Assembly: GCA_964606845.1 (NCBI GenBank)
Contig: CAZSIC010000002.1
Location: 17,609-81,608 of the forward strand
Length of the DNA stretch: 64,000 nucleotides
From: an uncultured Bacteroidales bacterium
Lineage (GTDB): Bacteria > Bacteroidota > Bacteroidia > Bacteroidales > UBA12077
Direction of reading: 5' to 3'
Shown here: piece after piece, positions 33,124 to 64,000 of the stretch
Layout: each line of letters starts with the position of its first letter
How positions within the stretch are numbered: the stretch's first letter is position 1
Translations under genes and position numbers: made by a program
The notes under the pieces: model-generated
The model's database searches: none
What the model was told of the DNA's origin: nothing
Seen by the model: only the letters and a program-made list of their open reading frames with translations

Positions 33124-34626
33124 TTACATTAAAAAACTTAACAAAATACCAGCACCAACTGCCGAACCAATTACACCTGAAACATTTGGAGCCATTGCAT
33201 GCATTAACAAGTGGTTTGTAGGATCAGCTTTTAAACCTTCGTGCTGAACTACACGGGCACTATCCGGAACAGCTGAAACACCTGATGCTCCGATTAGTGG
33301 ATTGATTTTATCATCTCCTTTAAGGAATAGATTCATCAATTTAGCAAAAAGTAAACCACCAGAAGTCGCAATCATGAATGATAATGCACCTAAACCAAAA
33401 ATCATTAACGATTGTTGTGTAAGAAAAACATCGGCCTGTGTAGATGCTCCCACAGTAAGTCCCAATAAAATAGTAACTATATCGATTAAAGAATTACTCG
33501 CTGTATCAGCTAATCTACGGGTAACTGTTGATTCTTTTAATAAATTACCAAAAAATAACATTCCTAATAATGGAAGTGAACTTGGCGAAATATATGCTGT
33601 TAATAACAAACCTACAATAGGAAACATTATTTTCTCAAGTTTTGACACCGCTCTTGGTGGTTTCATTCTTATTAACCGTTCTTTTTTTGAAGTAAACAAC
33701 TTCATAAACGGGGGTTGAATAATTGGAACCAACGCCATATATGAATAAGCAGCAATTGCAATAGGGCCAATTAAATGAGGAGCCAGTTTAGAAGATAAGA
33801 AGATTGCTGTTGGCCCGTCGGCACCACCAATAATTCCAATGGCACCAGATTCTGCAGGAGTAAAACCAAGCACTAAAGCACCTAAAAATGTTAAAAAGAT
33901 ACCTACTTGTGCAGCAGCACCCAATATCATTAACCTGGGATTTGAAATAAGTGATGAAAAATCAGTCATAGCGCCAATACCAAGAAAAATAAGTGGTGGA
34001 TAAATTCCCTGTCGAACACCAAAGTAGAGATAATTCATCACACTGCCTTCCTCATAAATTCCTAATTGCAGATTAAAACCTTCGGCCTGGAAAAAAGGAA
34101 TATTTCCAATAATAATACCAAATCCGATGGGTATTAAAAGCAAAGGTTCGTAATTATATCTAATAGCAAGGAAAATAAAGAATATACCAACAATAATCAT
34201 CATGATATGGCCGGGAGTTGCATTAGATACACCGGTATATTCATAAAAATTCATTAATCCGGCCATCGCTCCCGAATGATTATTAAATGCATCACCATCA
34301 ATCACTAACTGATCTTTCTGTAAATGGCCTGTTTTAGGCAGTATTTCTTGACTACTGAATTCCAGGTAAATACAATTATCAATCACCTGCCATTCTCCGG
34401 GAAATTTTGTTTTAATGGAATCGAAAACAAAAGTTTGATCAGCATTAAACCTTATCGATTTATATCTTTCAACGGTTCTATCGCTTTCGGCGCTGACTTT
34501 GTATCCACCAGATTTATTAACCCATTTACCTTTTGTTAATATTTTATCTAAATCATCAGCATTTGCAGATGAAATTCCGGAAAAGACCAAAACAAATGCA
34601 GAAATGATTAACCAAAATTTTTTCAT
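33124..34626 (-). CDS. mmdB: Na+-translocating decarboxylase beta subunit (OadB/MmdB family) with an extra N-terminal exported domain
   Basis: From about aa 115 it matches the OadB start (YEPLLLIPIGFG...) and continues through the polytopic domain. Residues 1-115 are a signal peptide plus a soluble beta-rich domain. Confidence 0.88.
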   Translation of the reverse strand: MKKFWLIISAFVLVFSGISSANADDLDKILTKGKWVNKSGGYKVSAESDRTVERYKSIRFNADQTFVFDSIKTKFPGEWQVIDNCIYLEFSSQEILPKTGHLQKDQLVIDGDAFNNHSGAMAGLMNFYEYTGVSNATPGHIMMIIVGIFFIFLAIRYNYEPLLLIPIGFGIIIGNIPFFQAEGFNLQLGIYEEGSVMNYLYFGVRQGIYPPLIFLGIGAMTDFSSLISNPRLMILGAAAQVGIFLTFLGALVLGFTPAESGAIGIIGGADGPTAIFLSSKLAPHLIGPIAIAAYSYMALVPIIQPPFMKLFTSKKERLIRMKPPRAVSKLEKIMFPIVGLLLTAYISPSSLPLLGMLFFGNLLKESTVTRRLADTASNSLIDIVTILLGLTVGASTQADVFLTQQSLMIFGLGALSFMIATSGGLLFAKLMNLFLKGDDKINPLIGASGVSAVPDSARVVQHEGLKADPTNHLLMHAMAPNVSGVIGSAVGAGILLSFLM

Positions 34627-34660
34627 AATGATGTATAAAATTATTTACGCTGATTATTAA

Positions 34661-35089
34661 CTATTCTATTTCGGCTAAAACATCGTTTTGTAGAACAGCA
34701 TCACCTTCTTTAACTTTTATGCTAGAAATCTTGCCATCTTTTTCTGACTGGATGTTATTTTCCATTTTCATGGCTTCCATAATTATAATGGTTTCGCCTT
34801 TTTTCACTTCGTCACCTTCTTGTTTTAAAATCTTAAATATATTACCAGGCAATGGAGCATTAAGGGTATATGCCCTGCTACTAACCGATTTCTTAATCTT
34901 ACTATCCTTTCGGTCGACCGGAATATTTGATCTAATAAGTTTTGGTGTTTTGGTAGTTTTCGTTTCTTTCTGATGGACTTCTACTTCATATTGAGTCCCG
35001 TTTACTTCAACTATTGCGATATTATCTTCGTAGTCTTTTATTTCAACATCGTAGTCGTTACCGCGAATTGTAAATTTAAATTTTTTCAT
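34661..35089 (-). CDS. mmdC: Biotin carboxyl carrier subunit of the decarboxylase
   Basis: C-terminal biotinyl domain with EAMKMEN. Confidence 0.85.
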   Translation of the reverse strand: MKKFKFTIRGNDYDVEIKDYEDNIAIVEVNGTQYEVEVHQKETKTTKTPKLIRSNIPVDRKDSKIKKSVSSRAYTLNAPLPGNIFKILKQEGDEVKKGETIIIMEAMKMENNIQSEKDGKISSIKVKEGDAVLQNDVLAEIE

Positions 35090-35098
35090 CTGTATCTT

Positions 35099-35473
35099 TT
35101 ATTTTCTGGGCCAAACTCTTAATCCATAAATTTTTGAACTCCATGGAGAATATGTTTTTCTCACACGTTTAATAGTGATTACATTGCTCTCTTCATCGTG
35201 CAATTCGCTAAAATAGAGATGCAAAGCCATAGAAATGGCAGCGCTTGTATCGCCGGGAATATGAAATTCGCTGTTGGAAATAACCGTTTGTTTCGTTTGC
35301 TGTTTTAATTTTTTCCTGGTTTGGTAATATATAATTTTGGGTGTTTGTGTAAATACGATTACAAGTAAAACCAGGGCAGCAAAAACAATCAACCAACCCA
35401 CAATGGCAATGGTTGCTCCTTGTCCGGATACAGCTGAAAAGTCAATTCCTATATTTGCTAATGTTGATATCAT
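35099..35473 (-). CDS. mmdD: OadG/MmdD-like small membrane subunit
   Basis: A single N-terminal TM helix (IAIVGWLIVFAALVLLVIVF) and its position between the carboxyltransferase and BCCP genes. Confidence 0.65.
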   Translation of the reverse strand: MISTLANIGIDFSAVSGQGATIAIVGWLIVFAALVLLVIVFTQTPKIIYYQTRKKLKQQTKQTVISNSEFHIPGDTSAAISMALHLYFSELHDEESNVITIKRVRKTYSPWSSKIYGLRVWPRK

Positions 35474-35483
35474 AGAAATATTT

Positions 35484-37043
35484 TTATAATGGAATATTTG
35501 AATGTTTTTTAGGCGGATTGATATCCTTTTTCGTTTGCAATGTTTCTAATGCACGAATGATCCTAAAACGCGAATTACGAGGTTCAATAATATCATCAAT
35601 ATATCCCAAACTTGCAGCTTGATATGGGTTAGCAAACTTTTCACGATATTCATTCTCTTTTTCAGCGATAAATTTCGCCTTTTCATCAGGATCTTCAATT
35701 TCAGCAAGTTCTCTTCCATAAAGTACTTCTACTGCACCTCGCGAACCCATAACGGCAATTTCTGCCGATGGCCATGCATAATTTATATCCCCACGTAATT
35801 GTTTTGAACTCATTACATCGTGTGCGCCTCCATAAGATTTTCGTAATGTAATCGTAATTTTAGGAACAGTAGCTTCGCCATAAGCAAACATTAATTTTGC
35901 TCCGTGAATAATAATTCCTCCATATTCCTGACTACTACCAGGTAAAAATCCGGGAACATCTACCAATGTTAAAATAGGAATATTAAAAGCATCACAAAAT
36001 CTAACAAAACGAGCAGCTTTGCGCGATGCATCAATATCTAATACGCCGGCTAAAAAGTTTGGCTGGTTGGCAACAATTCCAACTGACATGCCATCAAACT
36101 TTCCAAATCCTACTATGATATTTTTGGCATAGTGACGGTGAATTTCCAGAAACTCATTATTATCAACCAACGAATAAATGATATCAGTAACATCATATGG
36201 CTGGTTAGGATTTTCAGGAATAATTTCATTTAAAGCATCATCAAGTCTGTCGATTGGATCGGAGCATTCAATAGTTGGTGGTTCTTCCAAATTATTTTGA
36301 GGAAGGAAACTAAGCAACTTACGGATTAATAACAGTCCCTCTTCTTCATCTTCAATTTGAAAATGAGAAACGCCCGATTTTGAAGCATGAATATTTGCAC
36401 CACCCAAATCTTCGGTTGTAATATCTTCGCCGGTTACTGTTTTAACAACTTTAGGTCCTGTAACAAACATGTAACTGGAATTTTCGGTCATCATAATAAA
36501 ATCGGTAAGTGCTGGAGAGTAAACAGCACCGCCGGCACATGGGCCAAAAATAGCAGATATTTGAGGAATAACACCGGAAGCCATAATGTTGCGTTGGAAA
36601 ATTTCAGCATATCCGGCAAGGCTTGTTACACCTTCCTGAATTCTGGCTCCACCACTATCGTTAATTCCGATTACCGGAGCACCAACTTTCATGGCCATAT
36701 CCATTACTTTGCAAATTTTCTTGGCAAAAGTTTCGGATAAAGACCCTCCAAAAACTGTAAAATCCTGGGCATACAAATAAACGACACGCCCGTCGACCGT
36801 TCCGGAGCCTGTTACAACACCATCGCCCAAAATCTTTTTCTTTTCTAATCCAAAATTAGTACATCGATGGGTTACAAACATATCGAACTCTTCAAAACTA
36901 CCTTCGTCAAGTAGAATTTCAATTCGTTCGCGGGCAGTTAATTTGCCTTTTTTGTGTTGTGATTCGATTTTCTTCTCACCACCACCTAATTTGGCTTGTG
37001 CCCTTAAATCAATTAATTTTTTTATTTTATCTTGTTTATTCAT
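35484..37043 (-). CDS. mmdA: Methylmalonyl-CoA decarboxylase alpha subunit / acyl-CoA carboxyltransferase (12S type)
   Basis: 519 aa: GKLTARERI...DFTVFGGS...[11 protein letters not shown]...[12 protein letters not shown]...GGAHDVM, the typical PccB/MmdA family pattern. Confidence 0.9.
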
Positions 37044-37080
37044 CTGGATGAAATAAATTATTTAAATATGAAGTAATTTT

Positions 37081-37494
37081 TTACGATTTATTTTTATCCT
37101 CGCACAACTCGGTGAGGACACCAAAAGTTGACTTTGGATGTAGGAATGCAATATCCAACCCTTCAGCACCTTTTCGTGGTTGTTTATCAATTAGCCTAAC
37201 ACCATTTTCTTCTGCTTTTTGAAGCTTTTCTTCAATATTTTCAACGGCAAAAGCAATGTGATGTATACCCTCTCCTTTTTTCTCTATAAATTTTCCGATA
37301 GGCCCTTCGGGGTCTGTCGATTCTAGCAACTCAAGTTTTGTATCGCCAACCTGAAAAAAGGCGGTTTTTACTTTTTGGTCTTTTACCTCTTCAATGTTAT
37401 AACATGAAAGGCCTAATACTTTTTCGTAATACTTGATCGATTCATCAAGATTTTTTACAGCAATTCCGATATGTTCTATATGTGAAGGTTTCAT
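37081..37494 (-). CDS. mce: Methylmalonyl-CoA epimerase (VOC/glyoxalase fold)
   Basis: Started at the internal Met ([13 protein letters not shown]...[11 protein letters not shown]...). The resulting 137 aa fits the family size, and a promoter box lies inside the longer track ORF. Confidence 0.85.
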
Positions 37495-37513
37495 AAGTAA
37501 TAATTGTTTTTTG

Positions 37514-37521
37514 CAAAAGTA
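37514..37521 (-). promoter_or_regulatory. -7 box TActTTTG for the mce-mmd operon
   Basis: The plus-strand sequence caaaagta reads TACTTTTG on the minus strand, 20 nt upstream of the ATG at 37494. Confidence 0.45.
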
Positions 37522-37730
37522 CCCATATTCAACAAATCTGACTAATATTTTTAAATCAAAATGCATGCTTAAAATATTGTTCTTTAACATATAGGTTTTA
37601 CAGCACACTTTTTTCTAACAAACAAGCAAGTTATAAAACAATTGTTTGTAATTCAACTTTTTAAATACTAAAATAATTTCAACGGACAATCATGAATAAA
37701 AAATGTTTTGGTGATTATAATTCTTCTGTA

Positions 37731-42716: not shown

Positions 42717-45700
42717 TTATTGTGCTTTTTGTTCATTCCCTCCTTTTTCTGTTTCTGTTTCAGCTTCTTCTTTTTTTTCTTCTTCTGCAGATTTTTCGTT
42801 TTCTTCATCCTCTTCAGGTTCTTCTTTTTTATCCTGCTGATCTTTTTCTAATTGTTCCTGCTTTTTCCTTTCTTCTTCAGCAGCCTGGGCTTCTTCAAAC
42901 AATCTCATATTTCGTAAAAACTGGGATAAATTTTGATCCGTGGCAACAATATAACGATAAGGCGTTTCGCCACGCTTGGTTCTTAATTTACGTTTACGGT
43001 TTCTTATCTCTTTTATTGCATCCAGAAATTTGTCATTATTCGTAAGGGTTTGCATAACGCCACGTGAATATGAAAAGTAGTAATAGTGATCGTTCGGTAG
43101 CTTAAAATAAAATTTCATCAAATCGCCACTTCTACGTTTTATCAACTGGAAATAACCTTCTACATATTTATTTACAGGCTGGTTATTAATTGTTGCTATC
43201 CCTATTTTTCCATAGTTCAGATATGAACCTAATTCTGTATACCATTTTAATTTTAAATTACCTATAAGCATGGTATGTTTTGCCGATTTAGGTATTTCAG
43301 CCTCATCGGCATAAAGCATTAATTGATTGTTAAATTCGTTATAATCTTTTTCACCAATAATTTCGGTAAGGTATTTTTTAAAAAACGGAGAAGTGATACT
43401 CATCGGATCAAGCCCTTTGGCTGAATTAATATCTTCTAAAAGTGAATCTAAAGCTGCATCAGAGAAAAAGAAATCGATTGGAAAAACAATTTCCAGTTTT
43501 ATATCATTTTCATCCAGCTTATTATTAAACAATCCGGCGGGATTAAATTTTATTTGTCCCAGGTCTATTCCTAAATTAATTAATCCTTCGCCATGATATA
43601 AACAATAGTCTTTATGTAAATCGACTAAACTACCAGTAGTATCTGGTTTTAAAAATTTTGTTTTATCGGCTACAATATATTTGTTTGCATTTTTATCATA
43701 ATGCAGGTATCCATAAGCTTTAACAATTGGCTCGTCGTTAGGATCGCGCCTTTGCGATAAAAAAGTAGTATAAATATGCGATGAATCTTTAGTAATAAAT
43801 GGTGATGTATATAAACCTCTTCCGGTGGTATTATTTAATCCTTCAGGAACAGGAATATAAATACTATCGGGATTAATTTCTGATTCGAAATAAACCAGTT
43901 CATTAGGAATTAACGGGCAGTCCTGATCAATTCTCACACCACCTCTAAAAGTAAGAAAACGCTGCGCAGCATTTAGCTCCACATTTCCACGATAGTTGTA
44001 AACCGGACTAAGCGTAAAGTCTTGTTCTTTTTCAATCTCTCCAAGTGCTTTGGTTTGTAAAGTGGTATCAACAAAAATATTATCAAAATGAATTACCTGT
44101 GTCTGATTGTTTTCATCAATATAATCGTAATCGCCTGTTCCTAAGAAATCATTTCTTGCTTTAATATTTAATTTAGCGTGATAAATTTTATGATATCTGC
44201 TATCTGTATTAGCAACTATTTCGGCATCGACCAGCGTTTTCATTTTAGCTTGATAACCAATGGTAACGTCCCCTTCTTTTGGGAATACTAATGCATCGGC
44301 AACTTTAATATAATCAACTTCTGTAGCTTTTATTGTGCTATCTTGCAAACGGTAAACAGCTTTTGTCGAAGCAAATCGTAACGAATCCTGGCTAAGATGT
44401 GTGGACATATACAATGCGCCAGGCAAATTATCATCTTTTAATTCAGCAAGTTTTTGAATATCATCAGAAGCTGTTGCATCAACCTGTGGGCTAGATTCAA
44501 TTTCTATTTCATCTTTTACCATATCCCAGTTAAACTGATCAAGGTAACTGATATATAAATTCTTTGGGAATTGCGCTTTGGTAAATGATTCATTCGACTC
44601 AAAAGCACCTGCCTTAGCAGTAAAATCTATTTCTCCGTTAAGATTTTCGGTGATAAAATTAAACTCTTTTTTATCGATCGATTTTAAATTAAAACTTGTA
44701 GTATCTGAATTAAAAGCATTAGCTTCAAAATTAAACTGATTAGAGCGCAATGTTGCTTTTTCCAAATCCATCGTTCCCTGCCCTGTAAGTCCAATAGGTT
44801 TAATGGTTAATGATCCGGAAAAATGCGATTCCGGATTATACATATTAAATGGCTCATCGGTTTGATCTGCATACATCACATCATTGTAAGGATACCATTT
44901 AATATCAACTTCTTGTGCTTTTAAATTTGGAAACTCGATACCTGAAGTTCTTTGGGCTAAAGTAAAATCGTAAGCATGGATTTTTGTTGAATCGGGATAA
45001 AAAATAATACTGTCGGTTTTAGCTGTTGAAGTTAAATATTCTAACGTACCTGAACCTCTTAACCCTCTGTTACTTAGATCAATTTTATTGAAGTATTTTC
45101 CTTTTCCTTCGTAGAGCGGAAAACCTTCGTCAGGAGTATTTCTTTCAAACCCTAATGAATAATCAGGACGCATATAAATAGCATCGTCGAAAGGTGGAAA
45201 AATATTGGCAGAATAAAACCTGCCATCGAAACGCAAACCTTTGGTTGTAAAATTATCCAGACTATCAATGGTAAAGGGTTCTAACTCAAAATAAAAATTT
45301 TCTCTTTTATATACGCCTTTTTGTATGCTGTAATTATCATAATATACAAAAGAATTTTCATGACTGTTAAAAACAGGATACTCAGGAAAATTTTGTAATC
45401 CTGATTTATTACCCGGATGATCGATAAGCAAATTTCCGGTAACATTTTCGATTGTGTTTTTTACATTTGCCAGTATAGCCCGGTTATACAAATCAAACTC
45501 TTCGGTTTGTACCTGTATACTCAACGAATCGATATTATTTAAATTAATTTTAAAGGTATCATACTCGAAATAAAATTCATCGCCATAAAATGTAAATAAC
45601 CCGGCATCTACAACTCCTCCAAAACTAAAATCCCTGTTTTTTTTCATTACAATTTGTCTTTGTTTAGGATAAATAGCAACATTTTGTGAGTCGGAAAGGA

Positions 45701-47381
45701 ATATTCTTGGTACACCATTAATTATCAAGTCTTTATTAGATAAATCTATAACTCCATTATGAGTTAATCCACTAGTTTCTGAATTAAATTTCATTACATC
45801 ATAGTCAATTCTTCCAAAACGAGCTTGAACATAATCGTATAGTTTTGGATTAATGGTTGCTATATCATTATCAGTGTCGTAAAATAAAAATCCATCAACA
45901 CTTAAAAACATTAGCATTTGTTTTATTTGATATACATCGTAACTTAGAAATTGAGATAAATTAGCGGCACTAAATGATTGTTTGTTTATTTTTTCTGCAT
46001 ATCTTTTAATCGCGAGCAACGGGTGAAAATCATCTCTCAGCATTATTTTTTCAAACTCAATAAGGTTATAAAAATTTGAAGAAGTAAAGGTTGCATTTCC
46101 AATATCAGCACCGCGCCTTTTTGTCAGATAAATTTTATCATCATCAATATTCCAAAGTAGCCGGTCGAAATTCATTGATATTTCGTGATAAGAATCATAA
46201 TATGGACTTTTGGAAACAATTCTGTCTGATGGCGATAAGGAAACTTCGTTTTGTTTAGCTATAAAAGAAAACATGATACCCGGATGATAAATTGAATCGT
46301 TATCAAAATTAATGGTAACCTGTGCATCATTTGATACCACTCTGTTTTTTCCAAACATAAAAGTTTCTGCCAAAGCTTTTAAAATGGTTTTGTCCTCTTT
46401 TCTTATCTTTAAAAAAGCTTCATTATTCAGGTCTCCAGAACCTAATAAATTTGCTCCTTTCATCGAAAAACCACCATCATAATCAATTCCGGGAAAAATA
46501 TTTTCAATTTTAAAACGTTTTTGGTAAGAGTTAAATTCAGGATATACAGCCCTTTCAGCTTTAATTATATGAGTAACCTGATCGGACAACTGCCCTAAAA
46601 TAGGCTGGTCAAAATATAGTTTATTTACGAATAGAGCAGAATCAGCTTTATAACCTGATTTTGAAAGATCAATGGTATAATTATTCAACGCTGCATAAAC
46701 TTCATTTTCTGAGTAACCAGCTCTTTCCCATGAAACGACACCACCTTTTCCTTTCCATCGATTGGTTAGTGGAAAAAAATCTCCGCTTGTTTCATCAATT
46801 GAAATAGTGTCTGTTTTTATTTTACAATAAAGCCCTGTTTTTTCAAAAACAAACTTTAATTCTTCTTCGCTTAAAATTTTATAATTTTTTTTGGTTACAT
46901 ACCAGCTAGTTGCATAAGTTCCATAAATACTATTTTCTGTTATTAGCGATTTGGTGTTATCAAAATAGTTTGTTACCAGACGAAGTGGTTTTTTTTCATT
47001 TTCAAAAAGATAAATCAATCCTTTTTCCCAGTCATCATAATTATTCATGTCAGGCTCAGAAGTATGAAAGGCCATGACCAAATCAAAATATTTTGTGAAA
47101 TGTGGGTTTCTGCGTGCTTTTTTTTGAAGCATTAAATTACAAACATCAATAAAACGGGTTTTTATCTCATCGCTATAATATCCAGTATTCCATCGATCGA
47201 TAAATACATCAAGGCTATCTTCCTGTTCTTCGGATATGTTCCGTTTAACAAATTCTTCAAACTGTGCAATAAATTGCGCAGTATCGGTTTTGAATTCGTT
47301 TAAATCCTGAGCTAAAAGAGAATTTAAAGCGGTTAAACTAAAAAACAGGATTAGGATTATAGTGATCGATATCTTTTTCAT
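42717..47381 (-). CDS. Very large (1554 aa) secreted protein of unknown function with an acidic/Lys-rich C-terminal tail
   Basis: An uninterrupted ORF with a signal peptide (ILILFFSLTALNSLLAQ), a long beta-rich body and a final ~70 aa of E/K/Q low complexity. I recognise no motif. Confidence 0.8.
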   Translation of the reverse strand: MKKISITIILILFFSLTALNSLLAQDLNEFKTDTAQFIAQFEEFVKRNISEEQEDSLDVFIDRWNTGYYSDEIKTRFIDVCNLMLQKKARRNPHFTKYFDLVMAFHTSEPDMNNYDDWEKGLIYLFENEKKPLRLVTNYFDNTKSLITENSIYGTYATSWYVTKKNYKILSEEELKFVFEKTGLYCKIKTDTISIDETSGDFFPLTNRWKGKGGVVSWERAGYSENEVYAALNNYTIDLSKSGYKADSALFVNKLYFDQPILGQLSDQVTHIIKAERAVYPEFNSYQKRFKIENIFPGIDYDGGFSMKGANLLGSGDLNNEAFLKIRKEDKTILKALAETFMFGKNRVVSNDAQVTINFDNDSIYHPGIMFSFIAKQNEVSLSPSDRIVSKSPYYDSYHEISMNFDRLLWNIDDDKIYLTKRRGADIGNATFTSSNFYNLIEFEKIMLRDDFHPLLAIKRYAEKINKQSFSAANLSQFLSYDVYQIKQMLMFLSVDGFLFYDTDNDIATINPKLYDYVQARFGRIDYDVMKFNSETSGLTHNGVIDLSNKDLIINGVPRIFLSDSQNVAIYPKQRQIVMKKNRDFSFGGVVDAGLFTFYGDEFYFEYDTFKINLNNIDSLSIQVQTEEFDLYNRAILANVKNTIENVTGNLLIDHPGNKSGLQNFPEYPVFNSHENSFVYYDNYSIQKGVYKRENFYFELEPFTIDSLDNFTTKGLRFDGRFYSANIFPPFDDAIYMRPDYSLGFERNTPDEGFPLYEGKGKYFNKIDLSNRGLRGSGTLEYLTSTAKTDSIIFYPDSTKIHAYDFTLAQRTSGIEFPNLKAQEVDIKWYPYNDVMYADQTDEPFNMYNPESHFSGSLTIKPIGLTGQGTMDLEKATLRSNQFNFEANAFNSDTTSFNLKSIDKKEFNFITENLNGEIDFTAKAGAFESNESFTKAQFPKNLYISYLDQFNWDMVKDEIEIESSPQVDATASDDIQKLAELKDDNLPGALYMSTHLSQDSLRFASTKAVYRLQDSTIKATEVDYIKVADALVFPKEGDVTIGYQAKMKTLVDAEIVANTDSRYHKIYHAKLNIKARNDFLGTGDYDYIDENNQTQVIHFDNIFVDTTLQTKALGEIEKEQDFTLSPVYNYRGNVELNAAQRFLTFRGGVRIDQDCPLIPNELVYFESEINPDSIYIPVPEGLNNTTGRGLYTSPFITKDSSHIYTTFLSQRRDPNDEPIVKAYGYLHYDKNANKYIVADKTKFLKPDTTGSLVDLHKDYCLYHGEGLINLGIDLGQIKFNPAGLFNNKLDENDIKLEIVFPIDFFFSDAALDSLLEDINSAKGLDPMSITSPFFKKYLTEIIGEKDYNEFNNQLMLYADEAEIPKSAKHTMLIGNLKLKWYTELGSYLNYGKIGIATINNQPVNKYVEGYFQLIKRRSGDLMKFYFKLPNDHYYYFSYSRGVMQTLTNNDKFLDAIKEIRNRKRKLRTKRGETPYRYIVATDQNLSQFLRNMRLFEEAQAAEEERKKQEQLEKDQQDKKEEPEEDEENEKSAEEEKKEEAETETEKGGNEQKAQ

Positions 47382-59009: not shown

Positions 59010-59840
59010 ATGGGATGGTATACACATAAAGAAAAGGAATCAGTAAAACACAAGAAGAAAGATATTTTTGTTAAATGCAAAAAATGTCAGTCACATATTT
59101 ATATTACAGAATGGGCGAAAAATCTAAATGTATGTCCAAACTGTAATTTTCACGGAAGCATCACATCTGCCGAACGAATTAATTTACTTTTTGATCAAGA
59201 TACCTTTCAGGATCTTTTTAACGATATCAGCCCGGTTGATTCATTAGGTTTTAATGACCTAAAAGGTAGTTATAAAGATAAAATTGAAGCCACCAAAACC
59301 AAAACAGGCATTAATGAGGCTGTTATTACAGGAACTGGCAAAGTAGATGGGATAAAAGTTGTGATGGCGATAATGGATTTTAGATTTTTAGGAGGAAGCT
59401 TAGGCAGTGCTACAGGAGAAAAAATTTTACAAGCTGCCAATTATGCCTATGACAATAATCTGCCTTACATTGTAATATCTGCTTCTGGAGGTGCACGAAT
59501 GCAAGAAGGTGCTTTATCGCTCATGCAGATGGCCAAAACATGTGCCGGCGTATCACGATTAAATAAAAAAAATATACCTTTTATTTCTGTGTTAACAAAC
59601 CCTACAACAGGTGGCGTATCTGCCAGTTATGCCATGATGGGTGATGTTAATATCTCTGAGCCAGGAGCCATGATTGGCTTTGCCGGAAGGCGAGTAATTG
59701 AACAAACCATAGGCCAAAAATTACCCGATGATTTTCAAACAGCAGAATATTTACTCGAGCATGGATTTGTTGATTCAATTGTTAACAGAAAAGATTTAAA
59801 AGATTTTTTAAGTAATATATTAAGTTATTACAATAGATAA
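59010..59840 (+). CDS. accD: Acetyl-CoA carboxylase carboxyltransferase beta subunit
   Basis: N-terminal zinc ribbon CKKCQSH...CPNCNFH, then FLGGSLGSATGEK and ASGGARMQEG. Confidence 0.92.
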   Translation: MGWYTHKEKESVKHKKKDIFVKCKKCQSHIYITEWAKNLNVCPNCNFHGSITSAERINLLFDQDTFQDLFNDISPVDSLGFNDLKGSYKDKIEATKTKTGINEAVITGTGKVDGIKVVMAIMDFRFLGGSLGSATGEKILQAANYAYDNNLPYIVISASGGARMQEGALSLMQMAKTCAGVSRLNKKNIPFISVLTNPTTGGVSASYAMMGDVNISEPGAMIGFAGRRVIEQTIGQKLPDDFQTAEYLLEHGFVDSIVNRKDLKDFLSNILSYYNR

Positions 59841-59880
59841 TTGTTATCCTGATTTTCATTGATTTATAATTTTTATAATT

Positions 59881-60750
59881 ATGGGAAAAGAGTTGGAGAA
59901 TATAGTAATTGAAAAAAACGATCATAAACAAAAGTCAAAGAGTAAAACTTTAACTCCCTGGGAGATTGTTCAGGTGAGCCGTCACCCAAAACGGCCAGTT
60001 TTGCAGGACTACCTTTCGCATATTTTTACAAATTTTATTGAATTACACGGTGATCGTTATTTCGCCGACGACAAAGCCATGATTGGAGGTTTTGCACAAA
60101 TCGGCAGCCAAAAAGTAATGGTAATCGGGCATAATAAAGGAAAAACCACCACCGATAATATTGAACGAAACTTTGGGATGGCTAATCCAGACGGATATAG
60201 AAAAGCTTTACGCTTAATGAAATTAGCACAACGTTTTAATGTTCCGGTTATTACATTTATCGATACGCCAGGAGCATTTCCCGGCCTTGAGGCTGAAGAA
60301 CGCGGTCAGGCTGAAGCAATAGCCAAAAACCTAACCGAAATGGCTGCAATAGAAGTACCTATTATTTGCGTAGTTGTAGGCGAAGGTGGAAGCGGCGGTG
60401 CACTTGGTATTGGTGTCGGAGATCAAATATTAATGCTTTCAAATGCTATTTATTCTGTAATTTCACCCGAAGGCTGTGCCTCTATTCTTTGGCGAGATGC
60501 AAAATTTGCTCCTGATGCAGCTGAAGCCCTAAATCTTACAGCTAATGCATTACTAAAACACGGTGTGATTGATGAAATTATAAAAGAACCTGGAGACGGA
60601 GCACATACCGATCATAAAAAAACTACTGAATCAATCAAAGAAGCAATTCTTAAAAACATAAAATCATTACATAAATTAGCAACGGAAGAATTATTACAAA
60701 AAAGATTTGAAAAATTCTCGGCTATGGGAAAATTTTCTGATGGTAAATAA
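59881..60750 (+). CDS. accA: Acetyl-CoA carboxylase carboxyltransferase alpha subunit
   Basis: RHPKRP, FIDTPGAFPG and GEGGSGGALGIGV. Confidence 0.92.
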   Translation: MGKELENIVIEKNDHKQKSKSKTLTPWEIVQVSRHPKRPVLQDYLSHIFTNFIELHGDRYFADDKAMIGGFAQIGSQKVMVIGHNKGKTTTDNIERNFGMANPDGYRKALRLMKLAQRFNVPVITFIDTPGAFPGLEAEERGQAEAIAKNLTEMAAIEVPIICVVVGEGGSGGALGIGVGDQILMLSNAIYSVISPEGCASILWRDAKFAPDAAEALNLTANALLKHGVIDEIIKEPGDGAHTDHKKTTESIKEAILKNIKSLHKLATEELLQKRFEKFSAMGKFSDGK

Positions 60751-60767
60751 ACTAAAATGAAAAAGTT

Positions 60768-62705
60768 ATGGCTAAAGATATATTAAGAATTACAGATACA
60801 ACATTAAGAGACGGACATCAATCATTGTGGGCAACTCGAATGCGTACAGATGATATAATGGGAATTATCGATACCATTGACCAGGTGGGCTATTACTCAC
60901 TGGAAGTATGGGGAGGTGCTACCTTTGATGTATGTTTACGATTTTTGCGTGAAAATCCATGGGAACGTTTAAGGCTGATCAAATCGAAAGCTAAAAATAC
61001 ACCTTTACAAATGTTGCTGCGCGGACAAAATATTGTTGGATATAAAAATTACCCAGACGATTTGGTAGAGCGATTTGTAGAAAAAGCCCATGAAAATGGG
61101 ATTGATATTTTTAGAATATTTGATGCATTAAATGATTCAAGGAATCTACAGGCAGCTATAAAAGCAGTTAAAAAAACCGGTGCTCATGCCCAGGGTACTC
61201 TCTCTTATACCACAAGCCCTGTACATACGATTGAAAAATATGTTAGTGATGCAAAAAAACAAGTAGAACTTGGAATTGATTCATTGTGTATTAAAGATAT
61301 GGCCGGGCTGTTATCCCCTACCAAATCTAAGGAGCTTGTTTCTGCTTTAAAAGAAAATTTTGATATCCCTGTTCAGATTCATTGCCATGCCACCAGCGGG
61401 ATGGCCGACTCGGCCTATTTAGAAGGTGTTAAAGCAGGTGCTGGAGCAGTAGATTGTGCCATTTCTTCCATGGCAGGTTTCTCCTCTCAACCCCCCGTTG
61501 AGACAATCCATGCCATTTTTGAAGAAACTGAATTTGATGTAAACTTAGATTTGGATGCTTTAAGAAAAGTAAATAAATATTTTACAGGCCTAACTCCTAA
61601 AAGAATTAAAGGAAGAGGTTACGAACCTATAATTGATGCTGAAATTCTTGTACATCAAATCCCGGGAGGTATGATTTCAAATTTCCGCTCCCAATTAGAA
61701 CAGCAGGGAGCCATAGAAAAACTTCCCGAAGCACTTGAAGAAGTAACAAAGGTTAGAAAAGATTTAGGCTATCCGCCATTGGTTACACCAACAAGCCAGA
61801 TTGTTGGAACACAAGCTGTAATGAATGTAATTACAGGGCAACGCTATAAAGTTGTTCCACAAGAGGTGCGAAATTATGTAAAAGGAATGTATGGCAGGCC
61901 TCCTGCTCCTATTGACCCTCAGCTAGTTAAAAAAATCCTGGAAAAGGAAAAACCTATTGACCACCGTCCTGCCGATGATTTAAAAGCTATTTTGCCAACA
62001 GCAATAAAAAATATTTCTAATCCGGAATGGATTGAAAATGAAGAAGATATTTTATCTTATTGCTTGTTTCCTGAAGTTTCGGTTGAATATTTTAAATGGA
62101 GGGCATTGCCAGCTGAAAAACGGCCTAAGACTCCTGCTGATTTAGAAATTGAAGAACTGGTATATGTAAAAGAAAAACCAAAAGAAAGAAAAGTAACCTC
62201 AAACCAGTCTGCTGACAGTCCAATGTTACATCCTGAAGATTATGAAGGCATGAATGACCTACTGGAAAAAGCTTCCAGTATGCAATTGAATGAATTGAGC
62301 ATTCGAAAAGGTGATTTTCAATTTACTTTACGTTCAGGCAACGGAAGCGCTCAAGGTCATGTGTTTACTGAGCCTGTTGGTGAACAAAAGAAACCAGAAC
62401 AACCAAAGCAGGAAACAAAAAAACAAGAAACAGAAACTGTAGTTGAAGAAAAAACCGTCGAATATAAAGATACGATCAATGCAGTAATGACCGGTACATT
62501 TTATCAAGCATCCGGTGCTAATAAACCTCCTTTTGTGGAAGAAGGCACTGAAGTTAAAGAAGGTGAAACCATTTGTATTCTTGAAGCCATGAAACTTTTT
62601 AACGAGATTGAAGCTCCATTCAATTGTAAAATTGTTAAAATACTGATTGAAGATGGTACTTTAGTGAAAAAAGACCAGCCAGTTATGGCAGTGGAAAAAC
62701 TATAA
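60768..62705 (+). CDS. Oxaloacetate decarboxylase-alpha/PycB-type (5S) carboxyltransferase fused to an AccB-like biotin carboxyl carrier
   Basis: The N-terminal part has RITDTTLRDGHQS...IKDMAGL...QIHCHATSG (HMGL-like/5S carboxyltransferase). The C-terminal ~150 aa resembles full AccB: LLEKASSMQLNELSIRKGDFQFTLRS, a P/K/E linker, then MTGTFYQASG...ICILEAMKLFNEIEAP. The biotinyl-Lys codon is at 62592-62594. Confidence 0.85.
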   Translation: MAKDILRITDTTLRDGHQSLWATRMRTDDIMGIIDTIDQVGYYSLEVWGGATFDVCLRFLRENPWERLRLIKSKAKNTPLQMLLRGQNIVGYKNYPDDLVERFVEKAHENGIDIFRIFDALNDSRNLQAAIKAVKKTGAHAQGTLSYTTSPVHTIEKYVSDAKKQVELGIDSLCIKDMAGLLSPTKSKELVSALKENFDIPVQIHCHATSGMADSAYLEGVKAGAGAVDCAISSMAGFSSQPPVETIHAIFEETEFDVNLDLDALRKVNKYFTGLTPKRIKGRGYEPIIDAEILVHQIPGGMISNFRSQLEQQGAIEKLPEALEEVTKVRKDLGYPPLVTPTSQIVGTQAVMNVITGQRYKVVPQEVRNYVKGMYGRPPAPIDPQLVKKILEKEKPIDHRPADDLKAILPTAIKNISNPEWIENEEDILSYCLFPEVSVEYFKWRALPAEKRPKTPADLEIEELVYVKEKPKERKVTSNQSADSPMLHPEDYEGMNDLLEKASSMQLNELSIRKGDFQFTLRSGNGSAQGHVFTEPVGEQKKPEQPKQETKKQETETVVEEKTVEYKDTINAVMTGTFYQASGANKPPFVEEGTEVKEGETICILEAMKLFNEIEAPFNCKIVKILIEDGTLVKKDQPVMAVEKL

Positions 62706-62730
62706 CTAAACTATTAAAATTTATCATTAA

Positions 62731-62762
62731 AAAAAGCCGCTTCCATTCCGAAGCGGCTTTTA
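62731..62762. terminator. Bidirectional intrinsic terminator between the 5S-BCCP gene and ppdK
   Basis: A 9-bp stem, AGCCGCTTC (62735-62743) with GAAGCGGCT (62750-62758), flanked by an A-run and a T-run. Confidence 0.75.
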
Positions 62763-62783
62763 TATATCTATCGATTTAATTAT

Positions 62784-64000
62784 TTACCTTAAAGCAGCTT
62801 GTGCAGCAGCCAATCTTGCAATTGGTACTCGATAAGGAGAACATGAAACATAGTTCATACCTACCCTGTAACAGAATTCAACAGAAGTTGGTTCACCACC
62901 ATGCTCACCACAAATACCTACTTTTAATTCCGGACGTGCAGCCCTTCCTCTTTCGGTAGCCATTTCTACAAGTTGTCCAACACCTTCCTGGTCTAGTACC
63001 TGGAATGGATCATGTTTAAGGATTCCTTTCTGCAAGTATATTGGTAAGAATTTACCTGCATCGTCTCGAGAATAGCCAAAGCTCATCTGAGTTAAGTCAT
63101 TGGTTCCGAATGAAAAGAATTCTGCAGTTTTTGCAACTTCACCGGCTGTAAGAGCAGCTCTTGGAATTTCAATCATAGTACCTACCAGATATTCAACCTT
63201 TGCACCTTTTTCTTCGAAAACTTTTTCGGCTGTTGATCTTATAATCTGTTCTTGTAATTCATATTCCTGTGCTGTACCAATTAATGGAACCATAATTTCA
63301 GGTTTCGCATCAACACCCTTTTGCTTAAGGTTTACAGCAGCTTCGATTATTGCACGGGCCTGCATTTCTGTAATTTCAGGATATGTGTTTCCTAAACGAC
63401 AGCCACGGTGACCTAGCATTGGGTTAAACTCGTGTAAAGAATCAACGATTCGTTTTACCTCATCAACAGAAATACCTAATTCATTGGCCATTTCTTTTTG
63501 GTTCTTTTCATCGTGAGGAACAAACTCGTGAAGTGGTGGATCCAATAATCGAATAGTTACTCCGTATCCAGCCATTGCGTCTAAAATACCTTCGAAATCT
63601 TCGCGTTGATAAGGTAATAATTTATCTAAAGCTTTTCTTCTGTCTGCTTCATTTTCGGCAAGAATCATCTCACGCATGGCTTTAATTCTAGATCCTTCGA
63701 AAAACATATGCTCTGTACGGCAAAGACCGATACCATGAGCTCCAAAATTACGAGCTGTTTTGGCATCATTTGGCGTGTCGGCATTGGTACGAACATCCAT
63801 TTTTCTGAACTTGTCAGCCATATCCATAATTTCACCAAAATCACCACTAAGATCAGGATTTTTGGTTTTGATTTTTCCATCATAAACTACACCTGTAGAA
63901 CCATTTAGCGAAATCCAGTCACCTTCTTTATACTCTTTACCATCAATGGTCATTACTCTTGTTCTGTAATTAATAGAGATGGTTCCTGCACCTGAAACAC
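62784..64000 (-). CDS. ppdK: Pyruvate, phosphate dikinase, C-terminal PEP/pyruvate-binding part; the N-terminus lies beyond the right edge
   Basis: [22 protein letters not shown] and GICGEHGG motifs. The frame stays open upstream of the track Met to position 64000 (...[23 protein letters not shown]). Confidence 0.93.

Follow-up and report, generated by a model that had tools for sequence, protein, structure and literature searches.

At positions 59010 to 62705 of a 64,000-nucleotide stretch of DNA (the window; contig CAZSIC010000002.1 of assembly GCA_964606845.1, from an uncultured Bacteroidales bacterium of the UBA12077 lineage) three genes encode the carboxyltransferase subunits AccD and AccA and a third protein in which a 5S-type carboxyltransferase (CT) is fused to an AccB-type biotin carrier. 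They are described here as a candidate bacterial transcarboxylase. The three open reading frames (ORFs) are co-directional and separated by gaps of 40 and 17 nt, exactly as stated in an earlier note made from the sequence alone. The space between the fusion gene and the convergent gene ppdK holds a hairpin with a GC-rich 12-bp stem, flanked by an A-run and a U-run. RNA folding gives it a stability of -18.9 kcal/mol (z = -6.5), which was equalled by none of 200 shuffled sequences, and it probably acts as a terminator in both directions; a scan of the region for sigma-70 promoters and terminators did not pick it up. Because the gaps are short and a strong terminator follows the fusion gene, accD, accA and the fusion gene look like a single transcription unit (Table 1). 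The part of the window that holds the trio and ppdK (60001-64000) has a GC content of 38%, against a window average of about 32%. Metagenome-assembled genomes of Bacteroidales are the best matches to the window.

Table 1. Features of the accD-accA-fusion locus and of the carboxylase cluster downstream of it. Positions are those of the window unless a contig is named.
Feature	Position	Strand	Basis
accD, carboxyltransferase beta subunit, 276 aa	59010..59840	+	TIGR00515 and motifs
AccD zinc ribbon (CxxC...CxxC), residues 23-45	59076-59144	+	motif
AccD oxyanion motif GGARMQEG	59487-59510	+	motif
accA, carboxyltransferase alpha subunit, 289 aa	59881..60750	+	NF004344, alignment to E. coli AccA
AccA oxyanion motif GEGGSGGA	60379-60402	+	motif
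Fusion (5S carboxyltransferase::AccB), 645 aa	60768..62705, stop codon included	+	ORF and domain matches
5S/PycB/OadA-type carboxyltransferase part, ~480 aa	60768..62207	+	Pfam HMGL-like and PYC_OADA, PDB scores, motifs
AccB-type N-domain, fusion residues 492-523	62241..62336	+	TIGR00531, hhalign, AF2 secondary structure, conservation
Flexible E/K/Q/T-rich linker, fusion residues 524-568	62337..62471	+	composition, low conservation, pLDDT
AccB-type biotinyl domain, fusion residues 569-645	62472..62705, stop codon included	+	Biotin_lipoyl 569-641, alignment to E. coli AccB
Thumb of the biotinyl domain, fusion residues 580-589	62505-62534	+	alignment to E. coli AccB
Biotinyl-lysine motif EAMKL, residues 606-610, K609	62583-62597	+	motif
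Hairpin terminator in the spacer that separates the fusion gene from convergent ppdK	62732..62761	none	RNA fold
CT(518)-BC(502)-BCCP(177) cluster, starting 9.8 kb downstream of the fusion gene	L078 21742-21938; L159 8413-12059 (JBKHIH010000059.1)

AccD passes the TIGR00515 equivalog cutoff for accD (371 bits, cutoff 317), is 46% identical to its E. coli counterpart and begins M-G-W, with a tryptophan at position 3. AccA passes the NF004344 equivalog cutoff for accA (445 bits, cutoff 357), matching model positions 42-317 only. Judged by these scores, the zinc ribbon and the oxyanion glycine motifs, all of which are present, the two proteins are predicted to form the heteromeric CT of acetyl-CoA carboxylase (ACC). 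AccA aligns to residues 33-317 of E. coli AccA and lacks the N-terminal helical hairpin, about 30-35 residues long, of the canonical protein. The truncation is real, since just six codons separate the preceding stop codon from the ATG and there is no space upstream for a longer ORF. The same hairpin is missing from the Bacteroidales and Spirochaete AccAs encoded beside such fusions, and is kept at loci L023, L067 and L071. In the E. coli ACC holo-complex, the hairpin (residues 9-57) contacts the C-terminus of the biotin carboxylase (BC) and Trp-3 of AccD docks at the BC dimer interface, Trp-3 and the zinc ribbon being the BC-binding elements of AccD (PMC11160672, a preprint).

The third protein carries the Pfam domains HMGL-like, PYC_OADA and Biotin_lipoyl, all three found by the hidden Markov model annotation that the earlier note had proposed, and matches the PycB model PRK09282 with 794 bits. 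It has the layout of a PycB-type protein, a 5S-type CT followed by a C-terminal biotinyl domain. The catalytic motifs are intact: RDGHQS at residues 14-19, KDMAG with the carbamylated lysine at 176-180, and HCH at 205-207. The earlier assignment of this half to the oxaloacetate/pyruvate CTs is thus sound as to type, although its length is nearer 480 residues than the 450 proposed. Among solved structures it scores 489 bits with Vibrio cholerae OadA (2NX9), 468 bits with the beta subunit of the two-subunit pyruvate carboxylase of Methylobacillus (5KS8_C) and 439 bits with the Propionibacterium 5S subunit (1RQB); over residues 1-450, its identity with archaeal PycB is 44-56%. The fusion stays below the equivalog cutoffs for PycB (PRK14041, 628 against 734 bits; PRK14042, 510 against 1182), for oadA (TIGR01108, 716 against 756.5) and for the 5S subunit (PRK12330, 526 against 827). 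Databases label it "pyruvate carboxylase subunit B" or, in the case of JGI, "oxaloacetate decarboxylase alpha subunit".

The C-terminal part of the fusion resembles AccB over its whole length. Residues 495-644 match positions 6-156 of the 156-position AccB model TIGR00531 with 105.8 bits, the cutoff of 115.2 being set for standalone AccB proteins. The closest solved relative is the full-length E. coli biotin carboxyl carrier protein (BCCP; 4HR7_B, 55 bits); the 1.3S subunit of transcarboxylase reaches 34 bits, and the gamma carriers of methylmalonyl-CoA decarboxylase also score well behind the E. coli protein. The biotinyl domain aligns without gaps to residues 83-156 of E. coli AccB at 39% identity, including the thumb. 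All fusions of the clade to which this one belongs have the thumb, whereas MmdC, the carrier of the window's methylmalonyl-CoA decarboxylase (mmd) operon, and the archaeal PycB tails show a seven-residue gap in its place. Two claims made by eye in the earlier note, that the last 150 or so residues are a complete AccB and that they differ from the window's mmd carrier, are borne out by these comparisons; the biotinylation motif of the fusion was corrected to EAMKL.

The likeness of the N-domain to that of AccB, which the earlier note had also drawn by eye, is weak in the pairwise alignment (6 of 30 residues identical) and becomes clear when the profile of the trio N-domains is compared with that of AccB N-domains (hhalign 94.9%, E 4.6e-8). 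The N-domain has a pairwise identity of 63%, against 34-46% in the flanking spacers, and is about as conserved as the biotinyl domain; by this measure it appears to be under purifying selection. An AlphaFold2 (AF2) model of the fusion, which has a mean predicted local distance difference test score (pLDDT) of 66 and was used for secondary structure only, places a helix at residues 489-504 and strands at 509-514 and 517-522, a helix-strand-strand order, with low pLDDT. The linker is the least conserved region of the fusion (34% pairwise identity) and has a pLDDT below 50. A standalone AccB has about 150-170 residues and is encoded beside accC; here the carrier is attached to a 480-residue 5S CT. 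Apart from standalone form and adjacency to accC, the carrier has every structural attribute of AccB, and the alignments confirm that the AccB module is complete: it has the N-domain, the linker and a biotinyl domain that bears the thumb specific to ACC.

The conservation of the trio was followed at other loci, for each of which up to 10 kb was fetched on either side. A scan at one genome per species gave 63 loci, 28 of them bacterial loci with a long-form fusion, and seven more came from other look-ups, making 35 distinct bacterial long-form loci. Upstream sequence is available at 30 of these (L003, L015, L016, L021 and L022 are uninformative). The accA gene lies immediately upstream of the fusion gene in 28 of the 30, and accD precedes it wherever the contig reaches that far, so that the trio proposed in the earlier note is conserved among relatives. 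The trio loci belong to Bacteroidales, Spirochaetota and other groups; those of Leptospirales, Spirochaetes and unclassified bacteria have fusions that are 56-62% identical to the one in the window, two further divergent members are 44% and 59% identical, and one trio lies on a 4.6-Mb long-read contig. In a neighbor-joining (NJ) tree of 5S domains the fusions encoded in trios group together in a single clade. The carriers of the trio include many environmental Bacteroidales, and the fusion protein is represented in public databases by over 120 clusters with a sequence identity of at least 69%.

Seventeen diverse trio loci have the three trio genes in common and nothing else; an apparent fourth partner was rejected, since what ranks next as a "family" is a shadow ORF on the antisense strand of accA. 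The divergent pckA gene upstream and ppdK downstream, which the earlier note had taken as support in that they would make oxaloacetate and recycle pyruvate, are kept only in the closest relatives, with fusions at least 77% identical. They give little support because none of the other trio loci has them, the one on the 4.6-Mb contig included, and were rejected as functional neighbours. Lateral transfer of the trio was also considered: the proteins are about 10 percentage points more similar between phyla than to those of E. coli, which is not a strong signal. At locus L071 (421-2724), accD is called as a truncated product of 207 residues and is separated from accA by a 146-residue ORF with a ParB_N domain; either an insertion or an error of assembly or reading frame may be the cause. 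The contig JBKHIH010000059.1 (L002/L159) was deposited as "Thiohalospira sp.", a gammaproteobacterial genus, yet it is 84-95% identical to the present Bacteroidales-type sequence and encodes Bacteroidales-like genes. The label is probably a binning or labelling error.

No BC was found in the window in a tblastn search with E. coli AccC, and none of the 35 trio-clade loci, which are spread over several phyla, has one in the sequence fetched. In a contrast set of archaeal pycB genes, pycA follows immediately 3' in 33 of 35 loci, the other two being cut by the locus end, and its products are 53-58% identical to E. coli AccC. The earlier statement that a BC is missing holds for the window, but not for the source genome. 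The exact fusion protein of the window occurs on a 66-kb contig that extends beyond the window (L078, source contig SRR7048224_71435), and a gene cluster for a CT, a BC and a BCCP was placed in the source genome from the exact overlap with L078 together with the collinearity with L159. The CT was located by a metagenome scan with a 65-residue CT fragment as query. In the closest relative, a single contig of 23,388 bp holds both pckA-accD-accA-fusion-ppdK and the CT-BC-BCCP cluster; its fusion is 95% identical to that of the window, the region is collinear at 84-89% nucleotide identity, and the N-terminus of the CT agrees in 61 of 65 residues. The CT of this cluster is of the 12S/PccB type, the BC falls below the accC equivalog cutoff (572 against 626.5 bits) and the BCCP is thumbless. 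Because the BC is below the cutoff for accC and the carrier has no thumb, the cluster looks like a self-contained acyl-CoA carboxylase. The same CT-BC pair recurs in dozens of metagenome loci (L079-L114).

The mmd operon of the window (33124-37608, minus strand) encodes an epimerase, MmdA, an OAD_gamma-like protein of 124 residues, a thumbless BCCP of 142 residues and MmdB. By its gene content, it is a genuine Na+-translocating methylmalonyl-CoA decarboxylase operon. The idea that a BC might be hidden in this cluster was rejected on the same gene content, in which MmdB is the beta subunit of the Na+ pump. MmdB as called has 500 residues, about 138 of which form an N-terminal extension that matches no Pfam family; either a wrongly called start codon or an additional domain may explain it. 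A candidate all-in-one transcarboxylase, P0131 (1115 residues), was likewise rejected: it consists of two tandem 5S units (HMGL-like plus PYC_OADA), and no biotinyl domain was detected in it. A very long ORF of 1554 residues lies at 42717-47381 on the minus strand.

An accD-accA pair followed by a 5S::AccB fusion, with no BC next to it, is the set of genes that one would expect, to judge by sequence, for an oxaloacetate:acetyl-CoA transcarboxylase. It is proposed here, with moderate confidence, that the trio encodes a split, heteromeric enzyme of this kind, a bacterial counterpart of the ACCT/PycB protein of certain protists. AccD, AccA and the fusion would be subunits of one biotin-dependent carboxyl-transfer complex. 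The 5S domain would transfer the carboxyl group of oxaloacetate to biotin on the carrier at the C-terminus of the same protein, with release of pyruvate. The long flexible linker would then allow the carboxybiotin domain to swing to the AccD/AccA active site, where acetyl-CoA would be carboxylated to malonyl-CoA. The net reaction, oxaloacetate + acetyl-CoA <-> pyruvate + malonyl-CoA, would use no ATP. The probable role of the AccB N-domain is to oligomerise the carriers or to anchor them in the complex. A BC encoded elsewhere may additionally charge the carrier, but would not be required. The thumb and N-domain fit a carrier that is obliged to service AccD/AccA. The proposal is favoured by the conservation of the trio as a terminator-bounded unit and by the complete absence of BC linkage across phyla. 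It is also consistent with the loss, from the Bacteroidales and Spirochaete AccAs, of helices that contact BC in E. coli, with the fact that the only BC seen in the window and the syntenic region downstream has its own 12S-type CT and thumbless BCCP, and, by analogy, with the protist precedent.

Several observations weigh on the other side. The fusion is unlinked to accDA and lies amid unrelated genes in two loci, L024 and L025, which belong to a Chitinivibrionia metagenome-assembled genome and an unclassified bacterium. The 5S domain is about equally similar to OadA, PycB and the 5S subunit of transcarboxylase, and so its sequence does not fix its physiological direction. No biochemical characterisation of any bacterial member was found in the literature. 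The source genome encodes a BC, by synteny about 11.4 kb downstream of the fusion gene, and the elements with which AccD binds BC in E. coli, Trp-3 and the zinc ribbon, are kept in 12 of 12 trio AccDs from several phyla. Moreover, fusions of the same type occur beside accC. An exhaustive search of cluster representatives yielded 5S proteins that bear AccB-type carriers but do not belong to the trio clade, and all five of these AccB-type fusions with fetched context adjoin accC, two of them in the canonical accB slot (the accC-linked fusion loci are L068-L070, L072, L160-L162 and L075). In a spore-forming Firmicute the fusion gene lies between spoIIIAH and accC-asp23-nusB-folD-xseAB-ispA-dxs, which on the Bacillus subtilis map is the canonical position of accB. 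In another lineage efp precedes it and accC follows; one such gene overlaps accC, and another has bioY on one side and accC on the other and faces a fabZ-fabD-fabG-fabF-CT cluster. One genome has the order efp-accB-accC-pycB, the PycB in this case bearing an AccB-type carrier. These loci look like a separate, uncharacterised arrangement in which AccB is replaced by PycB::AccB, and their gene order suggests that a 5S::AccB fusion can stand in for AccB beside a BC. The ancestral partner of the fusion type was therefore probably a BC, and a 5S protein that bears an AccB-type carrier is compatible with an ATP-dependent carboxylase, to which such proteins are linked in other lineages.

It is accordingly quite possible, if somewhat doubtful, that the trio is an ATP-dependent hybrid in which the fused AccB serves as the ACC carrier and is charged by a BC encoded elsewhere, either the 502-residue BC at a distance of 11.4 kb or the product of an orphan accC. 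The carboxyl group would then be passed to AccD/AccA, giving an acetyl-CoA carboxylase, or to the 5S domain, giving a pyruvate carboxylase, and transcarboxylation would be merely a side reaction. The replacement of accB directly 5' of accC in the Firmicute, efp and fab-cluster contexts, the efp-accB-accC-pycB order, the BC of the source genome and the preserved BC-binding elements of AccD all point this way, as does the selection on the N-domain. The last, however, does not discriminate between the readings, since the N-domain of E. coli BCCP has been assigned to self-association rather than to BC binding (PMC11160672, a preprint). The lack of BC linkage at all 35 trio-clade loci would be odd for an obligatory partner, because pycB-pycA linkage is near-universal and the sister fusions adjoin accC. 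The single BC located has a CT and a thumbless carrier of its own and is below the accC cutoff, the Bacteroidales and Spirochaete AccAs are without the BC-contacting helices, and an organism with an ATP-forming PEP carboxykinase should, on general physiological grounds, need little pyruvate carboxylase. The transcarboxylase proposed in the earlier note thus gains from the AccB-type carrier on a 5S CT, the conserved trio and the lack of an adjacent BC, and loses from the accC-linked fusions in other lineages. The two interpretations are compatible, and in either the carrier should move CO2 between the 5S and AccD/AccA sites.

The database annotations imply simpler functions. If the fusion were an ordinary PycB working with a PycA-type BC, its position next to accDA would be incidental or regulatory, and AccD/AccA would be served by a separate standalone AccB. 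The "pyruvate carboxylase subunit B" label, the PRK09282 score and the BC in the genome agree with this, but the function is improbable: the PycB equivalog models are not reached, the carrier is of the AccB rather than the PycB type, the linkage to accDA with operon-like spacing persists across phyla down to 44% identity, and the pycB genes of the contrast set, which are genuine, adjoin pycA. It is still harder to accept the fusion as OadA, the alpha subunit of a Na+-translocating oxaloacetate decarboxylase that feeds the membrane-bound beta subunit of the mmd operon, and this is very improbable. The JGI label, the best structural match (V. cholerae OadA) and the fact that the window encodes a pump beta subunit together with an OAD_gamma-like protein (33124-35473) would suit such a role. 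The beta and gamma genes, however, are part of the mmd operon, which lies 24 kb away, is complete and includes a carrier; the fusion gene has neither oadB nor oadG linked to it at any of the 35 loci, the oadA equivalog cutoff is missed, and the AccB-type carrier and the linkage to accDA would be left unexplained.

Fatty-acid synthesis is committed at the formation of malonyl-CoA, a step that consumes ATP and is a classic target of antibiotics and metabolic engineering. Should the trio be a transcarboxylase, widespread anaerobic bacteria would make malonyl-CoA from a carboxyl group already fixed into oxaloacetate by PEP carboxykinase, saving one ATP per C2 unit. The current protein labels, pyruvate carboxylase subunit B and oxaloacetate decarboxylase alpha, would have to be revised, a natural modular enzyme for ATP-free malonyl-CoA production would be at hand, and there would be a plausible bacterial source for the unusual protist transcarboxylase. 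A bolder version, which is doubtful, holds both that the trio is a self-sufficient, BC-free module supplying ATP-free malonyl-CoA from oxaloacetate to type II fatty-acid synthesis in anaerobes (Bacteroidales, Spirochaetota and others) and that it was the progenitor of the Giardia and Entamoeba ACCT/PycB by operon fusion after lateral transfer. If the carrier is instead charged by a BC, the system would still be new, with AccB replaced wholesale by a 5S::AccB fusion and a single biotin arm serving the acetyl-CoA and the pyruvate/oxaloacetate active sites.

Of the known systems, E. coli AccABCD shares with the trio AccD and AccA at equivalog level and a carrier that is AccB-like over its full length. 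It differs in that the present locus has no accB-accC pair, its AccB is fused to a second CT and its AccA is without the N-terminal helices. The two-subunit PycA/PycB carboxylases (archaeal, and 5KS8 of Methylobacillus) have a homologous 5S-type CT and a C-terminal biotinyl domain, but the PycB carriers possess neither the thumb nor the AccB N-domain, and pycA, nearly always found after pycB, is never found at the trio. The accC-linked 5S::AccB fusions have the same succession of 5S CT, AccB N-domain, linker and thumb-bearing biotinyl domain; they go with accC and fatty-acid-synthesis genes rather than accDA, and the NJ tree places them apart from the trio clade.

A bacterial precedent for the reaction has been suggested in Clostridium thermocellum, which is said to lack a standard ACC and whose genes Clo1313_1523-1526 / Cthe_0699-0701 are used in models as a putative malonyl-CoA-forming transcarboxylase (PMC5414155; PMC3039559). 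As with the trio, the genes are bacterial, transcarboxylation to malonyl-CoA is proposed, and a 5S/OadA-type protein is present, although its gene has also been read as an oxaloacetate decarboxylase. The CT there is a 56-kDa fused protein of the 12S/PccB type, and the assignment remains hypothetical. The locus presumably also encodes a separate small carrier. Searches of the literature for a bacterial AccAD-type transcarboxylase or for "ATP-independent malonyl-CoA" found nothing, and no description of a bacterial accD-accA-5S::AccB operon was found in the searchable literature, Jordan et al. 2003 lying outside that search.

The methylmalonyl-CoA:pyruvate transcarboxylase of Propionibacterium (12S/5S/1.3S, EC 2.1.3.1; 1RQB, 1DCZ) likewise combines two CTs with one carrier and has no BC, and its 5S subunit is homologous to that of the fusion. 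To this extent the comparison drawn in the earlier note is apt. The CoA-side CT of the trio is, however, an AccD/AccA heteromer instead of a 12S hexamer, and its carrier is of the AccB type and fused to the 5S protein, whereas the 1.3S subunit is free and thumbless. The trio differs in the type of its CoA-side CT and of its carrier, and for this reason does not belong to the 12S/5S/1.3S family. At five other loci (L073 1-2446, L115-L118) a 12S-type CT is followed by a small ORF or a gap and then by a 5S protein whose carrier has no thumb; at L073 this cluster adjoins icd-mdh-fumarase. These Propionibacterium- or C. thermocellum-like 12S+5S clusters are a second candidate transcarboxylase architecture.

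The closest counterpart in composition is found in protists. The earlier note knew of no characterised enzyme of this make-up, but the ACCT/PycB protein, or malonyl-CoA:pyruvate transcarboxylase, is mentioned for Giardia, Entamoeba, Mastigamoeba, retortamonads and Monocercomonoides in PMC8136499, PMC7985675 and PMC12308965. In Entamoeba, according to papers cited in the first two of these, a single polypeptide with the same three modules works as an acetyl-CoA/oxaloacetate transcarboxylase; the enzyme papers, as cited there, are Jordan et al. 2003 (PMID 12766347) and Barbosa-Cabrera et al. 2012 (PMID 22453500). The hosts of the protist enzyme are reported to be without a conventional ACC, unlike the present source genome, which by synteny encodes a BC-containing carboxylase. 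The carrier of the protist protein is reportedly C-terminal. No protist sequence occurs among the best 150 representatives, and the likeness to the protist enzyme is one of modules and reaction, by description. Both systems have an ACC-type CT, a PycB/5S-type CT and a biotin carrier, and the order ACCT-then-PycB is that of the operon, accD, accA, 5S, carrier (PMC12308965, PMC7985675). For both, the reaction proposed is acetyl-CoA + oxaloacetate -> malonyl-CoA + pyruvate, which would supply malonyl-CoA free of ATP. What the protists have in one polypeptide is divided here among three. The proposed reaction and the set of modules are thus already known from protists, of which the bacterial, multi-subunit operon would be a new version.

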